Assembly (NCBI GenBank): GCA_000004695.1
Contig: CM000155.2
Location: forward strand, 3,232,001 to 3,296,000
Direction: 5' to 3'
Source: Dictyostelium discoideum
Taxonomy: Eukaryota
DNA: 64,000 bases
Below the pieces are notes generated by a model, which was given only the letters and a program-made list of their open reading frames with translations, had not been told where the DNA came from and searched no databases. Made by a program: the position numbers and the translations under genes. The stretch's first letter is position 1. Every line of letters begins with the position of its first letter. Below are positions 5,588 to 16,517 of the stretch, piece after piece.

Positions 5588-6571
5588 TATAATCCATTTT
5601 TAATTGAAAATATTAATTCATTTGGTACAAAAGTTATTACAGAAATTATATTTGGTAGAGAGTTTAGTGAAAATGAAGTTTACTCATTAATTGGACCAAT
5701 GAATAAATTATTTGGTATATTGGATACACCATTTCCATCAGAGAGTATATCATTTTTAAAACCATTTTATAGAAGATCTTATAAAGAATGTGATAAACAA
5801 TGTGAAGAATTATTTAAATTGGTTGAAAAAGTTTATGATGATCATTTATTGAATCTAGACAAAGACAACCCAAAAGATGTAATGGATGTAATGATTGTTG
5901 AAACTGATTTCAAAGAAAAGGATCATGTAATTTGTATATGTTGTGATTTATTAATGGGTACAAAAGATACATTCAATACAATTGTTTTATGGTTTTTTGT
6001 ATTAATGATAAATTATCAAGATGTGCAATTGAAGGGATATCAAGAGATAATCAAGGTTTTGGAATGCACAGGTCGAGATCATGTAACAATTGAAGATATC
6101 GATAAATTACCATACATTGATGGAATTATTAAAGAAATCTCAAGAATTCATCCAGCAGGTCCTTTATCAGTACCAAGAACTGCAATCAATGATATAATGA
6201 TCAATGGTTATTTCATTCCAAAAGGTTGTCATGTTTTTCAAAATACTTATGGTGCAGTTTATAATTATATGAAAGAATCTGATGAACCTTGTAAAATGAA
6301 ACCAGAAAGATGGATTGAAAATGAAAAATTAAGAAAAGATGGTAAATTAGACCCAACTAATGATTTAGCATTGATTTCATTACCTTTTTCAAGCGGAATT
6401 AGAAATTGTCCTGGTGTTGGTTTTGCAGAGTATGAATTATTCTTATTATTTTCAAATATCATTTTAAATTTTCATTTATCAAGTCCAAATAATCTAAAAC
6501 TCAATGAAAGTGGTCATTTTGGTCTTACAATGAAACCATTTCCATTTTTAGTTGATTTAAAATTAAGATAA
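5588..6571 (+). CDS. Cytochrome P450, exon 2 of 2 (327 codons; EXXR = EISR, PERW, heme loop FSSGIRNCPG). The total protein is about 491 aa.
   Basis: Acceptor aaatAG at 5586-5587, then the frame is open from 5588 (YNPFLIENINSFG...). Canonical FxxGxRxCxG cysteine ligand motif. TAA stop at 6569-6571. Confidence 0.85.
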   Translation, partial: YNPFLIENINSFGTKVITEIIFGREFSENEVYSLIGPMNKLFGILDTPFPSESISFLKPFYRRSYKECDKQCEELFKLVEKVYDDHLLNLDKDNPKDVMDVMIVETDFKEKDHVICICCDLLMGTKDTFNTIVLWFFVLMINYQDVQLKGYQEIIKVLECTGRDHVTIEDIDKLPYIDGIIKEISRIHPAGPLSVPRTAINDIMINGYFIPKGCHVFQNTYGAVYNYMKESDEPCKMKPERWIENEKLRKDGKLDPTNDLALISLPFSSGIRNCPGVGFAEYELFLLFSNIILNFHLSSPNNLKLNESGHFGLTMKPFPFLVDLKLR

Positions 6572-6573
6572 TA

Positions 6574-6574
<1 letters not shown>

Positions 6575-6631
<57 letters not shown>

Positions 6632-6700
6632 TTTATTTTTATTTTTATTTTTATTTTTATTTTTATTTTTATTTTTATTTTTATTATTATTATCTTCTTT
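6575..6700. repeat. (ATT)n then (ATTTTT)n microsatellite.
   Basis: Read directly. Confidence 0.9.
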
Positions 6701-6980
6701 TTTAGTAAATATTTTTTATACAACATATTAATAAAATTAAAAATCATTTATTTTTCTTTATTTTTTTTTTTTTTTTTTTTTTATTTTTTTTTATTTGTAT
6801 ATAATATTTTAAAATCGATTTTTTGTAATTTGACATAAAAAAAAAAAAAAAAAATAAAAAAATAATAAAATTAAAAACAAAAATAAAAATAAAAACTCAC
6901 TTTCTTTTTTTTTTTATTTTAGAAATTATTATTATTTGTTTCTTTTTTAAATATAAAAAATTAAAAAAAAATTTTTAATA

Positions 6981-7230
6981 ATGTCACAAAATGAATATGA
7001 CAAAAGTAATTCACTTTTAAATATATTTTCAATAAAAAAAATAACGTTAGAGAATGAAACTCTACTAAATTCAAAGATACCATGGGAAATAATTAAGAAT
7101 GGTAATGTTATTGATTTAGGTTGTGGTAATGGATGGTTTTGTAGAGAAATGATTGAAAAAGGTGTAAACCAAATTATTGGTGTTGACATTTCTGAAAAAT
7201 TAATTAAAAAAGCAATAGAATTAAATAAAG

Positions 7231-7279
<49 letters not shown>

Positions 7280-7460
7280 AAAATTAAAATATTATGTCAC
7301 TGATTTAGATAATTTCCAACTTAATGAAACTCCTTTTAATTCATTAATTGGTTCATTTGATTTTGCATTTAGTTCATTTGTAACTCATTATCTATCAGAT
7401 TTAGAATCATATTTTAAAAAAGTTTACAATTTATTAAAATCAAATAATAATAATAATAAT

Positions 7461-7530
<70 letters not shown>

Positions 7531-7889
7531 GAGGTAGTAGTTTTATATTTTTAGCAGAACATCCAATGAGAACTTCAACAAAATGTATTGAAAATAAATT
7601 TATAAATCATAAATTTGAAGGTGATGAAAATTCAAAAATGGTTTGGCCAATTTCAGATTATAGTGAAGAAGGTAAAAGAGTAACTAATTGGGCTGGATCA
7701 AGTGGAATTATTAAATATCATTATACAATTGAAACTTATGTAAACACTTTAATTAAAGTAGGTTTTAAAATTGATTATCTAGGTGAATTAAATCTTGTAG
7801 AAAGACAATTACAATTTAGTAATTCTGGTGATATATCTATAGAAGCAAATAGACCATTTACACTATTTATTAAAGTGTCAAAAAATTAA
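6981..7889 (+). CDS. Class I SAM-dependent methyltransferase, paralog 1 (302 aa). Contains N14 and ~N40 Asn-tract insertions.
   Basis: Motif I VIDLGCGNGWF (GxGxG), post-I acidic IGVDIS, motif II FDFAFSS. 85-90% identical to the ORF at 9196-9987 outside the Asn tracts. Confidence 0.8.
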
Positions 7890-8642
7890 TAAAAAAAAAA
7901 AAAAAATAAAAAAAAAAAGTTAAAAAAGTAAATAATTTAAATTTAATAATAAATAATTAATAAAAAATAAAAATAAATGTAAATTTCATTTCATTATCAC
8001 AAAAATAAAATATATACGTTATTTTATTAATTTAAAAATTATTGTACATGTTGTGCCAAGAACTTTTATTAGAAAAATAAGATGAAATAAAATAAAATGA
8101 TCTTTATTTTATAATTTTCTTTTTAAATTTTTATTATTATTAAAATTATGAATTTTAATAATAAAATATTCAATCGACATTAATAAGTCCACGTGGTTTT
8201 TACCCACGTGGGGTGAGAAAAGTTTAATTATATAAATTTTGATAATACAAGATTTTATTGCAATAATCCAATTATAGTATTTTGATAATAAATAATTAAA
8301 TTGCATTATTCGACTAATTAATTAAATTATTTTCAATTTTATTTTTTATTTAATTTTAAATACAACATATTTAAAACTGGTTATCTTTAAAAAAAAAATA
8401 AAAAAATATTAATAGTTTTATAGTGTTTTTAAAAAAAAAAAAAAAAAATTTGGACGGATAATTGTGAAAAATTTGGACGGATAATGGTGAAAAAATAAGG
8501 ATAATCAAAAAAAACCCTTTTAATACAAAGATGGAAAAAGGGAAAACATATTTTTTAAAACTATGGAATTATCATAATGTTATTATTTCATGGATAAGGA
8601 TAATCAAAAAAAACCCTTTTAATTCAAAGATGGAAAAAGGGA

Positions 8643-8681
<39 letters not shown>

Positions 8682-9195
8682 TATTAGATTGAATTTATGG
8701 ATTTGGAGATTTTATATCGATACAAATATTTGGTAATTTTAATATGAAGCATTAACGATAAGCCCGTTGTGTTGCCATTGTGTAGCAAGTATTTCATGCA
8801 TCATATAGGTTCAATACAAATTTTCTATTTATAATTAACAATACCCCTTGTAATTTCTAATCTATGAATGTTTTAGTGTGAATTTTTTTTACAAAATTTC
8901 CAAGTCACCACTAAATAATAAAAAATAATAATAACTCTCTGTAAAAAAAAAAATATTGTTTAGGTTAATTATTACATATATGTGTTATTGTTTATTTAGT
9001 ACTTGATTGTTGCAGAAAAAAAAATATTTAAATTTAAATTTTACAGATTAAAAAAACTCATCGATGAATTTAACAGGTAAAATTAATATGATCCCGTATA
9101 AAAAAATTGATTTGAGTAAAAAAATATAAATTAACTTTTTTTTTTTTTTTTTATTTCAAAAAACTATTATTTGTTTAATAAATAAATTTTTAAAA

Positions 9196-9987
9196 ATGTC
9201 ACAAAATGAATATGACAAAAATGATTCACTTTTTAATAAATTTTCAAATAAAAATTTAACTATAGAGAATGAAACTCTACTATTTTCAATGATACCATGG
9301 GAAATTGTTAAGAATGGAAATGTTATTGATTTTGGTTGTGGTAATGGATGGTTTTGTAGAGAAATGATTGAAAAAGGTGTAAACCAAATTATTGGTGTTG
9401 ACATTTCTGAAAAATTAATTAAAAAAGCAATAGAATTAAATAAAGATAATAATGAAAAATCAAAATATTATGTCACTGATTTAGATAATTTCCAACTTAA
9501 TGAAACTCCTTTTAATTCATTAATTGGTTCATTTGATTTTGCATTTAGTTCATATTTAACTCATTATTTATCAGATTTAGAATCATTTTTTAAAAAAGTT
9601 TACAATTTATTAAAATCAAATAATAATAATGGTAGTAGTTTTATATTTTTTGCAGAACATCCAATGAGAACTTCAACAAAATGTATTGAAAATAAATTTA
9701 TTAGTCATAAATTTGAAGGTGATGAAAATTCAAAAATGGTTTGGCCAATTTCAAATTATAGTGAAGAAGGTAAAAGAGTTACTAAATGGGCTGGATCAAA
9801 TGGAATTGTTAAATATCATTATACAATTGAAACTTATGTAAACACTTTAATTAAAGTAGGTTTTAAAATTGATTATATAGGTGAATTAAATCTTGTAGAA
9901 AAACAATTACAACTTTGCAATTCTGGTGATATAACAATAGAAGCAAATAGTCCATTTACACTATTTATTAAAGTAATAAAAAATTAA
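9196..9987 (+). CDS. Class I SAM-dependent methyltransferase, paralog 2 (263 aa, no Asn tracts).
   Basis: Same motifs as 6981-7889. Tandem duplicate 2.2 kb downstream. Confidence 0.8.
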   Translation: MSQNEYDKNDSLFNKFSNKNLTIENETLLFSMIPWEIVKNGNVIDFGCGNGWFCREMIEKGVNQIIGVDISEKLIKKAIELNKDNNEKSKYYVTDLDNFQLNETPFNSLIGSFDFAFSSYLTHYLSDLESFFKKVYNLLKSNNNNGSSFIFFAEHPMRTSTKCIENKFISHKFEGDENSKMVWPISNYSEEGKRVTKWAGSNGIVKYHYTIETYVNTLIKVGFKIDYIGELNLVEKQLQLCNSGDITIEANSPFTLFIKVIKN

Positions 9988-10620
9988 TTAAAGAAAGCTT
10001 TAATTTTTTTAAAAAAGTAAATCATTTTTATATTAAAAAAAAAAAATAAAAAAAATAAAAAAAAAAAAATAAAAAAAATAAAAAAAAAAGATTTTTTAAT
10101 CTTTTTTTTTTTTTCACCTATCCTTTTTGACAAATTAACACAGCAATTTCAAAAGTTATGTTTAAAAATTAATTATTTATTTTTTTTTCCCCACCATTTT
10201 AGCTTTTTTTTGATACACACAGAATAATAAAGAAATATTAATAAAAATAAAGAAATAATAATAAAATTCTTTTTTTTTTTTTTTAAAAAATTATTATTTT
10301 ATTAATTACCAATCACGTAGTTTAGTGTGCTCGAAATTGATAAAATTATTATGTTAACAGACACGAAATATGTTCGTTTTACAATTTAAAAAAATAATGC
10401 AGTTTCTGTTTCTCGTTAAAATAATTGTGACCTAAACAAAAATTAAAAAAAAAAAAAATAAAAAAACAATTAAATAAAAAATAAAAATAAAAAATAAAAT
10501 AAAACTGGGATTCAAAAATAAAAGCAAGCTCTAATCTATTATAATTTTTAATTAAATATGTGTTAATCTAATTCTTCAATACACCTCTAAACTTTTCACT
10601 TATATAAAAAAAAAAAAAAA

Positions 10621-10905
10621 ATGACATTAATTGGTATACCACGTGGTACACCTCAAATTGAAGTTATGTTTGATGTTGATAGTAATGGTATTTTAAATGT
10701 TGCAGCTGAAGATAAAACTTCTAAAAAAGTTGAAAAAATAACTATCACCAATGACAAAGGTCGTCCCTCTCTAAAAGATATTAATAAAATGGTTGAAGAT
10801 GCAGAGAAATTTAAAGAACAAGATCAACAACAAATTTTGAAAGTTTATTTTACAAATTATTGCATAAATAAAAAAAAAAAAAAAGATTTACAAAATTTTA
10901 TTTAA
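10621..10905 (+). pseudogene. Internally deleted Hsp70 pseudogene. The first 18 nt of the hsp70 CDS (ATGACAtcAATTGGTATA) are fused to the substrate-binding-domain segment PRGTPQIEV...[10 protein letters not shown], then the sequence diverges.
   Basis: ~90% nucleotide identity of 10639-10845 to 12643-12850 of the adjacent hsp70. The start is identical to 11242-11259. Confidence 0.75.
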
Positions 10906-11241
10906 AATAATAAAATGAGAAAATAATATAATTTTAAAAAACCAATAGTATTTAATGTATTTTTTTAATTAAAATTATAGAAATCCTATCCCTTGTTTAA
11001 ACAAATCTAATCGAAAAATCTGGTGAATTTCAACTGTTTCCCAAAAATGTGAAATTTCAGAAAATTAAATTTAAAAAAAAAAGCAAAAAAAAAAAAACTA
11101 TTTATATTCGCTGTTTTATTTTTAATTTCTATTATTAATTATTTCTTTTTTTTTATATTTATATATATTAATTATTTTCTTATTACTTTTTTCGTTATTA
11201 AATTTAAATTTTTAATAGATTATTAAAAAAAAAAAAAAAAA

Positions 11242-13134
11242 ATGACATCAATTGGTATAGATTTAGGAACAACATATTCTTGTGTTGGTGTTTGGTTGAA
11301 TGATCGTGTTGAAATTATTGCAAATGATCAAGGTAATAGAACTACTCCATCATATGTTGCATTCAATGATACAGAGCGTTTAATTGGTGATGCTGCAAAG
11401 AATCAAGTTGCAATGAATCCAATAAATACAGTTTTCGATGCAAAACGTTTAATTGGTAGGAAATTTTCAGATAGTGTTGTTCAAAGTGATATGAAACATT
11501 GGCCATTTAAAGTTATAACAAATAAAAACGATGATAAACCATTAATTCAAGTTGATTTCAAAGGTGAAACTAAAACATTCTCACCTGAAGAAATTTCATC
11601 AATGGTATTATCAAAAATGAAAGAAACTGCTGAATCATATTTAGGTAAACCTGTTAACAATGCAGTTATAACAGTTCCAGCTTATTTCAATGATGGACAA
11701 CGTCAAGCAACTAAGGATGCTGGTACAATTTCAAAATTAAATGTTCAACGTATCATTAATGAACCAAGTGCTGCTGCTATTGCATATGGTTTAGATAAGA
11801 AAGGTAGTAAAAGTGGTGAAATAAAAGTTTTAATATTCGATTTGGGTGGTGGTACATTTGATGTTTCATTACTATCAATTGATGATGGTGTATTTGAAGT
11901 TTTAGCAACAGCTGGTGATACTCATTTAGGTGGTGAAGATTTTGATAATCGTTTAGTGAATCACTTTGTAGATGAATTCAAACGTAAACATAAGAAGGAT
12001 ATAATGGGTAACCAACGTGCTCTTCGTCGTTTGAGAACTGCATGTGAACGTGCAAAAAGAACACTATCATCATCATCTCAAGCATCAGTTGAAATTGATT
12101 CACTTTATGATGGTATTGATTTCTATACCTCAATTACCAGAGCACGTTTTGAAGAACTTTGTTCTGACCTTTTCAATAATTGTATTGAACCAGTTGAAAA
12201 AGTTTTAAAAGATTGTAAATTGGATAAGAAATCAATAGATGAAATTGTATTAGTTGGTGGTTCAACTCGTATTCCAAAAGTTCAACAATTAATTCAAAAT
12301 CTTTTCAATGGTAAAGAATTAAATAAATCAATTAATCCTGACGAAGCCGTTGCATATGGTGCAGCAGTACAAGCTGCTATTCTATCAGGTGATAAAAGCT
12401 CAAGAATCTCTGAATTAATTTTCATTGATGTTGCACCATTATCATTGGGTATTGAAACTGTTGGTGGTGTAATGACAAACATCGTTCCAAGAAACACAAT
12501 TATCCCATGTAAAAAGACACAAACTTTTTCAACTCACACAGATAATCAAAGTGGTGTTTTAATTCAAGTTTATGAGGGTGAACGTACAATGACAAAAGAT
12601 AATAATCTATTGGGTAAATTTGAATTAACTGGTATCCCACCAGCACCACGTGGTACACCTCAAATTGAAGTTAGTTTCGATGTTGATAGTAATGGTATTT
12701 TAAATGTTACAGCTGAAGATAAAACTACTAAAAAAGTTGAAAAAATAACTATCACCAATGACAAAGGTCGTCTCTCTCTAAAAGATATTACTAAAATGGT
12801 TGAAGATGCAGAGAAATTTAAAGAACAAGATCAACAACAAAAAGAACGTATTGAATCAAAGAATAATCTTGAAAACTATATATTTTCTGTAAAAAATTCA
12901 ATTAATGACCAGAAAATCATTTCAAAACTCTCTAAATCTGATAAAAATATTATTGAATCTGAAACTGAAAGTACTCTTAAATGGTTAGAATCAAATCAAT
13001 CTGCCGAAAAGGATGAATTTAATCAAAAGATATCAGATCTTGAATCAATTGTTAACCCAATCCTTAGTAAATTCTATCAAGGTAATAATAATCCAAAACC
13101 AACCACAACTACTTTTAACCAAGATCTTGATTAA
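11242..13134 (+). CDS. Hsp70 family chaperone (630 aa, single exon). The C-terminus is ...FNQDLD rather than EEVD.
   Basis: [36 protein letters not shown] and SBD motifs across the full length. Confidence 0.95.
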
Positions 13135-13643
13135 AATTAAATATATAAATTTCAGTGTAAAAAAATAAAAAAATTAAATATACATTCCATAAAGTTTTCC
13201 TTTTCCCAATCATTTCTCTACAAAACCATCCATTACTACAAATAATAATTTTCTAAAATATCAAAAAAAAAATAAAAAAAAAAAATAAAAAAAAAAATAA
13301 AAAAAAAAAAAAATTTATTAATTTTTTTTTGGAGTGACAGAATTCTGTTCTGTTCTGTGGTTGTATTTAAATTCAATTATATTCTCATTTTAATTATATT
13401 GATATTTGTAGTCATTTAAATATTTTTAGTGGTAGACTTCAAATGATCTTTCTTTGAACATTTGTTGAGTTTTGTAATATATAAAACAAATATTTATCTG
13501 TTTTGGTAACTTTTTATTTAATTGTTTTTATTTGAAAAAAAAAAATAAAATAAAATAAAGAATTAAAAATAAAAAATAAATTAGAAAATTAAAATAACGA
13601 AATATTAAATGAAAAAAGGGGTAAAAATATCTTTATTTTATTT

Positions 13644-13674
<31 letters not shown>

Positions 13675-14115
13675 GACACAGAGTTTGTGGTTTTAATAAA
13701 TAAAAACGAATTTGTTTATCATTAATTTGAAATTTCATTTTTTTATAATTTTATCCGTTTTTGTATAATTTGTCAAAAATGTATATTTATAAATGAAACA
13801 AAGAATTTGTTTACTTGAAATTCTATTGTGGTTAAATTTTTGACTTTGTAGGATTGTAATTTAAATTACAAATTATAATAATTTGGAAAAAATAGATTTT
13901 CAATTTAATTATTTTTTTTTTAAAAAAAAAAAAAAAGTATAAATTAAAAATAAATTTTAATGTTTTATTTCATTCACAAATTATTTAATTACAAAATAAA
14001 ATAACAAAAATAAAATGACACTCTTTTGTAAGAATTTAATTATATTTTTTATTTAATTTAAAAATAAAGTTACTAATTTATTTATTTTAAAAAACTATTA
14101 GCTTCAATCTCATCA

Positions 14116-14355
14116 ATGTCAAGTTCAATGACAAGCTCAAAATCCAGCTTTGCATCTTTTGGTAATGGAACAAGGGTGAGTTCAAATTCAATTGCATGTA
14201 GTGTTGACTGTGACGGCAAAGGTGTTAGCTCAGGATCAGACTTAACAGGAGGCGCTAAATCAGGTGGAGATTGTGGTGGTAAAGGAAGACCAAATAATCA
14301 TGGTCATGGTCATGAAAATTGTCATGGTGGTAAAGGTCCAGGAAATTCATGTTAA
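14116..14355 (+). CDS. Small Gly/Ser/Cys/His-rich protein (79 aa), hssA/2C/7E-family-like.
   Basis: Local GC-rich island in an AT-rich intergenic region. Composition (G, S, C, H, N) and size resemble the Dictyostelium HssA/B-related small proteins. No detectable homology can be checked here. Confidence 0.4.
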
Positions 14356-14429
14356 TGTTAATATTAATTTGTACTACAATGTAATATTACATTATTTAAA
14401 ATAAAATGGCGATTAAAAAAATGTGTGGA

Positions 14430-14432
14430 GCT

Positions 14433-14491
<59 letters not shown>

Positions 14492-14492
14492 T
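14430..14492. repeat. (TTTA)n microsatellite, ~15 units.
   Basis: Read directly. Confidence 0.9.
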
Positions 14493-14807
14493 ATATATTT
14501 TTATTTTTATTTTTATTTTTAATTTTTTTTTTATTTTTATTTATTTTTTTATTTAATTTCTTTTTTTATAACCATGTGGAAATTAAATTTTTAAATGTTT
14601 TTTTTTTTTAAAAAAAGATATTTTTTTTTTTTTATTTTTTTTTTTGATGATTTTTCATCAACACAAATAATTAATAATGAATGTTTTTGAATTAATTAAA
14701 AAAAAAATTATTTATAAATCACTTATTTATTAAAATAATATTTTATTTTATTTTATTTTATCTATATTTTCATACAGTTAAGCTTAACTTTTTACAAATT
14801 TTATAAA

Positions 14808-16517
14808 ATGCCATCAATGGGTATAGATTTAGGAACAACATATTCTTGTGTTGGTGTTTGCAATGAAAAAGGTCGTATTGAAATTATTGCAAATGATCAA
14901 GGTAATAGAACTACCCCATCATATGTTTCATTTAATAATAGAGAATGTTTAATTGGAGATGATGCAATGAATCAAGTTGCAATGAATCCAGTTAATACCA
15001 TTTTCGATGTAAAACGTTTATTTGGTAGAAAATATTCAGATAGTGTTGTTCAAAGTGATATGAAACTTTGGCCATTTAAAGTTATAGCAAATAAATTTGA
15101 TGATAAACCATTAATTCAAGTTGATTTCAAAGGTGAAACTAAAACATTCTCACCTGAAGAAATTTCATCAATGGTATTATCAAAAATGAAAGAAATTGTA
15201 GAACAACACTTGGGTGAACCTGTTACAGATGCAGTTATAACAGTTCCAGCTTATTTCAATGATAGACAGCGCCATGCAACCAAATATGCAGGTACAATTT
15301 CAAATTTAAATGTATTAAGAATTATTAATGAACCAACTGCTACTGCAATTGCATATGGTTTACATAGGAGAGGTATTGATGATATGAAAGTTTTAATAAT
15401 CGATCTAGGTGGTGGTACATTTGATGTTTCATTATTCAATATAGAAGATGGTATATATGAAATTTTATTATCAGGTGGTGACAATCATTTAGGTGGTGCG
15501 GATTTTAATAATCGTTTAATGAATCACTTTATAGATGAATTTAAACTTAAACATAAAAAAGATATAACCAATAATCAACGTGCTATTTTTCGTTTAAGAA
15601 CTGCATGTGAACGTGCAAAGAGAACTTTATCAATTTCATCATTAGCATCGATTGAAATTGACTCACTTTATGATGGTATTGATTTTTATTCAACAATTAC
15701 AAGAACACATTTTGAAAAACTTTGTTCTGACCTTTTCCATAGTTGTATCGATCATGTTGAAACAATTTTAAATAAATGTAAATTAGATAAAAGTTTAGTA
15801 GATGAAATTGTATTAGCTGGTGGTTCAACTCAAATTCCAAAGATACAAAGAATGTTTAAAGAATACTTCAATGGTAAAGAATTTAACAACTCGATTAACC
15901 CTGATGAAGTTGTTGCATATGGTGCAGCAGTACAATCTGGAGTTATTTCAGGCAAAGGTTCAAACTTTCCTCAACTTATTTTTTTAAATGTTACACCATT
16001 ATCAATGGGTATTGAAACTGTTGGTGGAATAATGACAAATCTTGTTGAAAGAAATACTCATATTCCTATTAAAAAAACGCAAACTTTTTCAACCCAATAT
16101 GATAATCAAACCAATGTTTTAATTCAAATTTATGAAGGTGAACGTACAATGACTAAAGATAATAATCTAATTGGTACATTTGAATTAAATGGTATCCCAC
16201 CAGCACCACGTGGTGTTACCCAGATTGAAGTTTGTTTTGATGTTGATATAGATGGTATATTAACAGTTAGTGCAGAAGATAAAACCACAAAAAAAGTTCA
16301 AAAAATCACCATCTCCAATATTAATGATCATCTCTCAAAAGTAGAGATTGAAAAAATGATAGTAGATGGTGAGAAATTTAAACAACAAGATCAACAACAA
16401 AAAAAAGAACTTATTGAATCAAATTATAAAATATATTGTGGTGATGAAAACACATTAGATTTTGAAATTACTCAAAAATTGTTAGGATCAGCTCAATCTA
16501 CTGAAATGAACGAATGA
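14808..16517 (+). CDS. Divergent Hsp70 paralog (569 aa). Lacks the C-terminal lid/tail and has many substitutions (about 75% identical to 11242-13134).
   Basis: Conserved NBD and SBD-beta motifs are retained. It ends soon after the QQDQQQK segment. Confidence 0.85.

Follow-up and report, generated by a model that had tools for sequence, protein, structure and literature searches.

The described systems that come closest to the locus analyzed here are the unprocessed pseudogenes of tandem gene clusters, the Hsp70 family (PF00012) with the Dictyostelium cytosolic Hsc70 DDB_G0293674, and the microhomology-associated deletions found in decaying gene duplicates. The object of our study is an open reading frame (ORF) of 285 bases (94 codons) at positions 10621-10905 of the forward strand, annotated as "hypothetical protein DDB_G0293672" (Q54BE1, XP_629088.1). 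It lies in what we refer to as the window, a stretch of 64,000 nucleotides (G+C 21%) that exact protein look-ups placed on chromosome 6 of Dictyostelium discoideum AX4. With the unprocessed pseudogenes of tandem clusters this Hsp70 remnant shares the position next to a functional paralogue, the deletion of most of the coding sequence, a neutral substitution pattern, a presence that varies between strains, and independent lesions in the orthologous copies. It differs from them in that its deletion is in frame and its start codon has been kept, and hence a clean 94-codon ORF survives and has been annotated as protein-coding. With DDB_G0293674 it has the first six codons in common and 96% nucleotide identity over codons 469-533; however, of an Hsp70 it has neither the nucleotide-binding domain nor the interdomain linker, and the greater part of the beta-sandwich is gone, as are the C-terminus and the lid beyond the retained part. 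Hsc70-4 (DDB_G0293678), located 3.6 kb downstream, likewise belongs to the local cluster and also has a shortened C-terminal lid, but its ATPase and substrate-binding domains are complete, whereas the remnant is neither complete nor conserved. Objects of this kind are very familiar, and the remnant is a further, mis-annotated one.

Structure of the remnant and its surroundings

The remnant is flanked upstream by a methyltransferase gene and downstream by its parent, the intronless gene DDB_G0293674 (Hsc70-3); the ATGs of the two are 621 bp apart, the parental one being at 11242. The parent gene has been renamed hspH2, and knock-out and expression data for it are available (PMC8094536). The features of the locus, with positions in the window, are:

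9196-9987: methyltransferase gene DDB_G0293670
10090-10602 (+): spacer separating the remnant from the 3' flank of the methyltransferase gene; seen in the AX4 haplotype only, without similarity to Hsp70 or to the Hsc70-3 promoter
10603-10620 (+): A-run directly 5' of the remnant ATG, corresponding in the alignment to parent 11224-11241 (repeat D9)
10621-10638 (+): Hsp70 start segment, codons 1-6 (MTLIGI; parent MTSIGI), 17/18 identical to 11242-11259
10638-10834 (+): substrate-binding-domain (SBD) segment, parent codons 469-533 (PRGTPQ...EQDQQQ), 190/197 identical to 12645-12841
10835-10905 (+): read-through tail of 23 codons in DNA unrelated to Hsp70, with TAA at 10903-10905
10915-11241 (+): promoter and 5' region of the intact parent, conserved in all strains of the D. 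discoideum complex, with the HSE-like sequence GAAATTTCAGAAA at 11051-11063
11242-13134 (+): parent DDB_G0293674 (Hsc70-3, also hspH2), 630 aa, intact, under purifying selection
14808-16517 (+): third family member DDB_G0293678 (Hsc70-4), 569 aa

The remnant is built from two pieces of the parent. The first of them, 10603-10638, matches 11224-11259 at 34 of 36 positions and comprises the A-run followed by ATGACAT[T/C]AATTGGTATA; within the 18 nt that begin with the start codon, a single change (10628 C>T) separates remnant and parent. An earlier note on this DNA had recognized these 18 nt as an hsp70 start carrying two changes, of which one is real. With up to three mismatches allowed, the three Hsp70 starts (10621, 11242 and 14808) are the only places in the 64 kb where this 18-mer is found, 0.31 occurrences being expected by chance. 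The second piece, 10638-10834, aligns with 12645-12841 without a gap at 190 of 197 bases (96.4%; blastn E about 1e-90), and the same pair was recovered independently by a repeat finder (family D4). The identity of about 90% given previously for this segment was an underestimate, while its assignment to the neighboring intact gene was right. The seven differences are located at 10667, 10668, 10671, 10702, 10720, 10766 and 10784. Hsc70-4 was rejected as the donor of the segment, to which it is just 77% identical.

Start and SBD pieces abut with one base in common (the A at 10638; junction 10638/10639). What is missing between them is parent nt 19-1404, that is 1,386 nt or 462 codons (codons 7-468), exactly in frame. 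The internal deletion of about 1.4 kb that had been proposed in place of a simple truncation is therefore present, although the copy is truncated at its 3' end as well: the homology ends at nt 1600 of the 1893-nt parental coding sequence, after codon 533, where the AX4 sequence reads CAACAAA joined to TTTTGAAAG. Codons 1-6 and 469-533 of the 630-codon parent are thereby retained, and 559 of the 630 codons are gone. Beyond 10834 all similarity is lost, as had been noticed before, and the frame stays open for 23 codons in AT-rich DNA before a TAA is reached; at the local intergenic composition, the probability of 23 open codons is about 0.13. Nor is the remnant an assembly artefact, since a separate assembly of this haplotype (GCA_054883475.1) shows 100% identity throughout the region.

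At the protein level, the Pfam HSP70 profile (PF00012) matches over its positions 460-526 of 599 only (67/599), and a tblastn search with the 630-aa parent protein found nothing but aa 459-547 at the remnant site. Going by the general architecture of Hsp70, the retained codons 469-533 should encode the final two beta-strands of the substrate-binding domain and the first helix of its lid. Neither a complete substrate-binding beta-sandwich with its helical lid nor the N-terminal, actin-like ATPase (nucleotide-binding) domain was found in the remnant by Pfam, tblastn or the comparison of the upstream DNA. In the latter, 10100-10602 was aligned with parent 11260-12644 by the Smith-Waterman method with shuffled controls, and no similarity to the nucleotide-binding domain emerged (z = -0.2). 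The similarity does not, in other words, continue upstream of 10621 into this domain, which the earlier note would have taken as the sign of an ordinary decayed pseudogene. The tail and the sequence downstream of it were compared in the same way with the parental C-terminal coding region and 3' flank; they showed no similarity. Judged by these two comparisons and the tblastn search, the internal deletion in AX4 is clean, and not the visible part of a longer, more diffuse decay. Rfam and tRNA scans of the remnant region gave no matches.

When 10495-10606 was compared with the Hsc70-3 promoters of AX4 and of three other strains, a fraction of 0.17-0.44 of the shuffled sequences reached the observed score, and for the whole of 10100-10602 the z-score did not exceed 2.4 and came from A-rich low complexity. 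No HSE-like site is present in 10000-10620, while the HSE-like site of the parent is conserved in the other strains; across the whole window, the count of HSE-like motifs is not above chance. The A-run in front of the ATG is the sole upstream similarity, and it is not specific, because A-runs precede most starts in this genome. The suggestion that the remnant might be expressed from an hsp70-like promoter has consequently found no backing. The spacer itself (10090-10602/10620) has no match elsewhere in the window and, except for low-complexity matches, is absent from the other strains and species that we compared; among the seven loci, these roughly 0.5 kb (10090-10620) occur in the AX4 haplotype only.

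Cytosolic Hsp70s use an EEVD motif to bind TPR co-chaperones, and no such motif stands at the end of Hsc70-3 (13105-13134). Beyond about nt 1625, Hsc70-4 no longer resembles Hsc70-3 and closes with a short tail of unrelated sequence, without most of the lid and without any EEVD-type C-terminus; still, it looks maintained, since its length is conserved across strains (569 aa in four strains of the D. discoideum complex, 557 aa in D. citrinum).

The locus in other strains and species

Besides the window and the second assembly of the AX4 haplotype mentioned above (L001), we extracted the locus from six other assemblies via relatives of Hsc70-4 and Hsc70-3. They represent two other D. discoideum strains (L002, L004), two genomes of D. 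cf. discoideum (L003, GCA_054859205.1, and L005), as well as D. firmibasis (L006) and D. citrinum (L007). In L003, a longer, orthologous Hsp70 pseudogene (6091-7354) is positioned directly upstream of the Hsc70-3 orthologue. It retains parent nt 1-615 (90% identity), 1147-1199 and 1277-1587. A separate internal deletion of about 530 nt joins FDLGGG to DKSSRISEL at a GGTG microhomology, the nt 1277-1587 part carries several frameshifts and a 31-nt gap, and between the deletion junction and that part an unrelated insert of about 350 nt, which contains an (AAATC)n microsatellite, interrupts the pseudogene at 6715-7065. Its 3' end is the same as the 3' junction of AX4 (...CAACAAA joined to TTTTGAAAGTTTATTTTAC...), and downstream of this point the two sequences are collinear (88% over 406 nt) into the Hsc70-3 promoter.

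A larger duplicate must therefore once have been present at this locus, and the view that the AX4 remnant is a deletion derivative of a tandem hsp70 duplicate is borne out by the longer L003 pseudogene. The 16-mer spanning the 3' junction (10828-10843, CAACAAATTTTGAAAG) was found in the window, L001 and L003 only, whereas the 16-mer spanning the AX4 5' junction (10631-10646, TTGGTATACCACGTGG) was confined to the window and L001, so that the 1,386-bp deletion is lineage-specific. The SBD piece of the remnant is 96% identical to the parent and 83-86% identical to the L003 pseudogene. Neither blastn nor tblastn detected an Hsp70 fragment at the locus in L002 and L004, where the methyltransferase 3' flank passes through an A-run directly into the Hsc70-3 promoter, and the same searches found none in D. 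firmibasis and D. citrinum.

The right-hand flank of the locus, in a gap-free alignment of 7.7 kb with D. citrinum as the outgroup, gave the tree (L003,(AX4,(L002,L004))); derived sites were shared by AX4, L002 and L004 in 34 cases, by AX4 and L003 in 19, and by L002, L004 and L003 in six. From this phylogeny we infer that the truncated copy predates the split of AX4 and L003 and was subsequently lost in the L002/L004 lineage; on account of this loss, the remnant would be dispensable. L002 and L004, which are labelled D. discoideum (ACTFIR, ACTFIW), differ from AX4 at about 1.9% of the positions in the 7.7-kb flank, with a dS of about 0.11-0.13 in Hsc70-3. Such a divergence is more than one would expect within a species and may point to deep lineages, or to cryptic species, among these assemblies.

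The methyltransferase-Hsp70 cluster is clearly prone to rearrangement and structurally unstable across the D. discoideum complex. L005 contains further Hsp70 debris, with a methyltransferase gene lying between the body of an Hsp70 pseudogene and an Hsp70 3' end. The upstream methyltransferase genes vary in tandem copy number, with two in AX4 (6900-9987) and three in L002 (2189-6141), and they are rearranged in L004 (1959-6138) and in L005. Between the two methyltransferase genes of AX4 there is a 62-nt direct repeat (8495-8556 and 8594-8654; 95% identical). The 3' flank of Hsc70-3 contains, in reverse orientation, a 43-nt piece of methyltransferase coding sequence (13199-13241) with 93% identity to 9336-9377 and 7121-7162, so that the methyltransferase family, too, has left debris in the cluster. 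The spacer between Hsc70-3 and Hsc70-4 (13135-14807) measures 1.67 kb in AX4, L002 and L004 and about 0.35 kb in D. cf. discoideum (L003 9656-10000); in AX4 it contains a Gly/Ser/His-rich ORF of 79 codons (14116-14355) that is not called by newer annotations.

Deletion junction and substitution pattern

The earlier note had attributed the internal deletion to illegitimate recombination between short repeats. Both joined sites do contain an imperfect 12-mer (TCAATTGGTATA at the start, TTAACTGGTATC in the SBD region; 9/12 identical, including TGGTAT), but the TTAACTGGTATC site lies 9 nt to the left of the right breakpoint and out of register with it. We did not accept the 12-mer as evidence of how the deletion arose: six other 9/12 matches exist in the coding sequence, an extra 9-nt deletion would have been needed, and the junction itself shares a single nucleotide. 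The L003 pseudogene reads TTAATTGG at the SBD site, as does the AX4 remnant, and the exact breakpoint is therefore formally ambiguous within 10626-10638. Because of the six competing matches and the additional deletion, one deletion plus one substitution is favored within this interval. With ends that share only 1 nt, end-joining or slippage may lie behind the 1,386-bp deletion. The three internal deletions among the cluster's Hsp70 fragments resemble microhomology-associated deletions in decaying duplicates in that their ends overlap by 1-4 nt (A in AX4, GGTG in L003, ATA in L005); the AX4 overlap differs in being a single base, and a microhomology mechanism is a guess in that case. An independent Hsp70 fragment in L005 (19831-19860) has kept exactly the first 18 nt (ATGGCATCAATTGGTATA), which are joined to about nt 670 (GDTHLGG motif) in the arrangement GGTATA joined to CTTATTTAGG, with ATA as the overlap. 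Since the AX4 and L005 fragments both retain the first 18 nt, the same left breakpoint has been used twice in the cluster.

Over the 65 codons shared with the AX4 parent, the remnant has accumulated six non-synonymous changes and one synonymous change (dN 0.040, dS 0.026, omega 1.5), whereas omega between the Hsc70-3 orthologues of the different strains is 0.01-0.10. With seven changes only, and hence little power, the 6:1 ratio does not depart from the neutral site ratio (binomial p = 1.0); the same seven changes depart from the parental ratio (binomial p = 0.0001; Fisher p = 0.0006 and 0.004). Among the changes is a replacement of Leu by Pro within GRLS, a conserved motif. In an alignment of several strains, the remnant carries states of its own at five of the seven sites, and the site at 10671 is ambiguous; at 10784 the remnant has kept the ancestral AAT, and it is the AX4 parent that has changed. 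A recent gene conversion from the parent received no support, as the remnant shares no derived state specific to the AX4 parent and has kept one ancestral state. On the remnant branch we counted 5-6 substitutions where about 11 are expected (half of the AX4-L003 dS), which over 197 nt is a weak shortfall (Poisson p = 0.04-0.07) that would be compatible with mild constraint or with a gene conversion early on. The pattern fits neutral evolution under relaxed constraint. Purifying selection and conservation among close relatives were not found for the remnant, which is absent from L002, L004, L006 and L007 and frameshifted in L003; nor is it a small ORF or micropeptide conserved in these relatives, given that its AX4 5' junction is restricted to one haplotype.

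Origin of the remnant and its alternatives

In our view, DDB_G0293672 is very probably a non-functional, unprocessed pseudogene relic of the neighboring Hsc70-3 gene (DDB_G0293674). Before AX4 and D. cf. discoideum separated, a partial copy of Hsc70-3 reaching from the 5' A-run to codon 533 would have ended up upstream of the Hsc70-3 promoter, at a distance of about 0.4 kb. This copy, already truncated at its 3' end, would then have decayed in each lineage separately, and the internal deletion would be the younger event. On the AX4 side, codons 7-468 were probably taken out by one 1,386-bp deletion, and with them went the complete ATPase domain and linker as well as most of the beta-sandwich; the deletion would have been in frame by chance and been followed by neutral substitutions, while the lineage of L002 and L004 would have lost the truncated copy. 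That the 94-codon ORF is open may likewise be due to chance, given the 1 in 3 odds of an in-frame deletion, seven substitutions in 197 nt and an AT-rich tail that happens to be free of stop codons for 23 codons. What marks an unprocessed pseudogene is found here: a functional paralogue nearby, disabling lesions, relaxed constraint, and independent lesions in the orthologue together with a dispensable locus. The predicted product cannot act as an Hsp70, because it would have no ATPase domain and, of the substrate-binding domain, no more than the final two beta-strands and the first helix of the lid. Speaking against a relic are the intact ORF, the native ATG behind an A-run, the annotation as protein-coding, and the listing of DDB_G0293672 among the genes with open chromatin in unicellular cells (PMC8094536, Table S7); this peak may, however, belong to the parent promoter 0.3 kb away.

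These same points would be the mainstay of a genuine small protein-coding gene, whose 94-aa product, a piece of the substrate-binding domain and lid of Hsp70, might have a function of its own, for instance by modulating Hsp70 or its co-chaperones or by serving as a decoy for them. The gene does have an open frame with a native start codon and an A-rich leader, it carries the identifiers DDB_G0293672 and Q54BE1, it is recorded as open in unicellular cells (PMC8094536, Table S7), and its substitution count is slightly under the neutral expectation. We nevertheless consider such a gene very unlikely. An omega of about 1.5 and a proline in the conserved GRLS motif are at odds with it, as are the frameshifted orthologous copy of L003 and the absence of the locus from two strains and two sister species. 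The fragment has no ATPase domain (Pfam) and, going by the architecture of Hsp70, presumably no substrate pocket, and there is no promoter in common with the Hsp70 genes. The DDB_G0293672 protein cluster has one member only, and a newer annotation of the identical sequence calls no gene at the remnant. DDB_G0293672 is missing from a published RNA-seq differential-expression table (S4) that does list the neighbor DDB_G0293674, at the place where adjacent accessions stand, and a sub-list of genes with higher unicellular expression in the same study contains DDB_G0293674/hspH2 and leaves DDB_G0293672 out (PMC8094536). It is not mentioned in the supplements of two further RNA-seq papers, no mention of it was found in the text of the literature, and a search of the literature on Dictyostelium Hsp70 pseudogenes yielded nothing relevant.

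The sharp ends of the two pieces, with an overlap of 0-1 nt, unrelated flanks and no other parts of the gene, are also what filler DNA would look like; in that case template switching during the repair of a break would have copied 197 nt of the SBD region together with about 18-36 nt from the 5' end, and the copy would never have been longer in the AX4 lineage. That the SBD piece resembles the parent (96%) more than it does the L003 pseudogene (83-86%) agrees with this scenario. We hold it to be improbable to a high degree, however, as the 3' junction and the downstream flank are those of the longer L003 pseudogene, and the SBD piece must therefore already have been present within a larger copy; moreover, L003 and AX4 differ by changes that are each confined to one branch, which is what neutral decay in two separate lineages would produce. 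The chance that the remnant is a processed pseudogene, retrotransposed from an aberrant Hsc70-3 mRNA, strikes us as close to negligible. The homology does begin in the A-rich 5' leader near the ATG, and an A15 run follows at 10871-10885, but the homology stops inside the coding sequence at nt 1600 and not at an mRNA 3' end, the A-run lies 36 nt past the end of the homology in a genome full of A-runs, and the copy adjoins its parent, with the L003 copy showing ordinary stepwise decay. A test for intron loss is not applicable to an intronless parent, and around the remnant we found no flanking duplication beyond generic A-runs.

The pseudogene relic, which remains our preferred explanation, might still be transcribed, perhaps from open chromatin shared with the hspH2 promoter. 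Its product, the 94-aa SBD/lid fragment, could then interfere with Hsp70 or its co-chaperones, or its RNA, with 197 nt at 96% identity, could feed an RNAi process that tunes Hsc70-3. We regard this activity as a speculative and most unlikely one; if it were true, the remnant would be an AX4-lineage-specific regulatory by-product of pseudogene decay.

For the annotation of the D. discoideum genome, our analysis means that DDB_G0293672 (Q54BE1, XP_629088.1) should be recorded as a pseudogene fragment of DDB_G0293674 and not as a hypothetical protein. At least one genome-wide analysis (PMC8094536, Table S7) has already treated the entry as an "orthologue", and its 197 nt at 96% identity to Hsc70-3 can attract multi-mapping reads as well as off-target primers or guides that are meant for hspH2. 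The locus provides a small and clean example of how an in-frame deletion makes a dead gene copy resemble a gene, and the comparison of the cluster across strains reveals changes in gene copies together with several independent pieces of Hsp70 debris.
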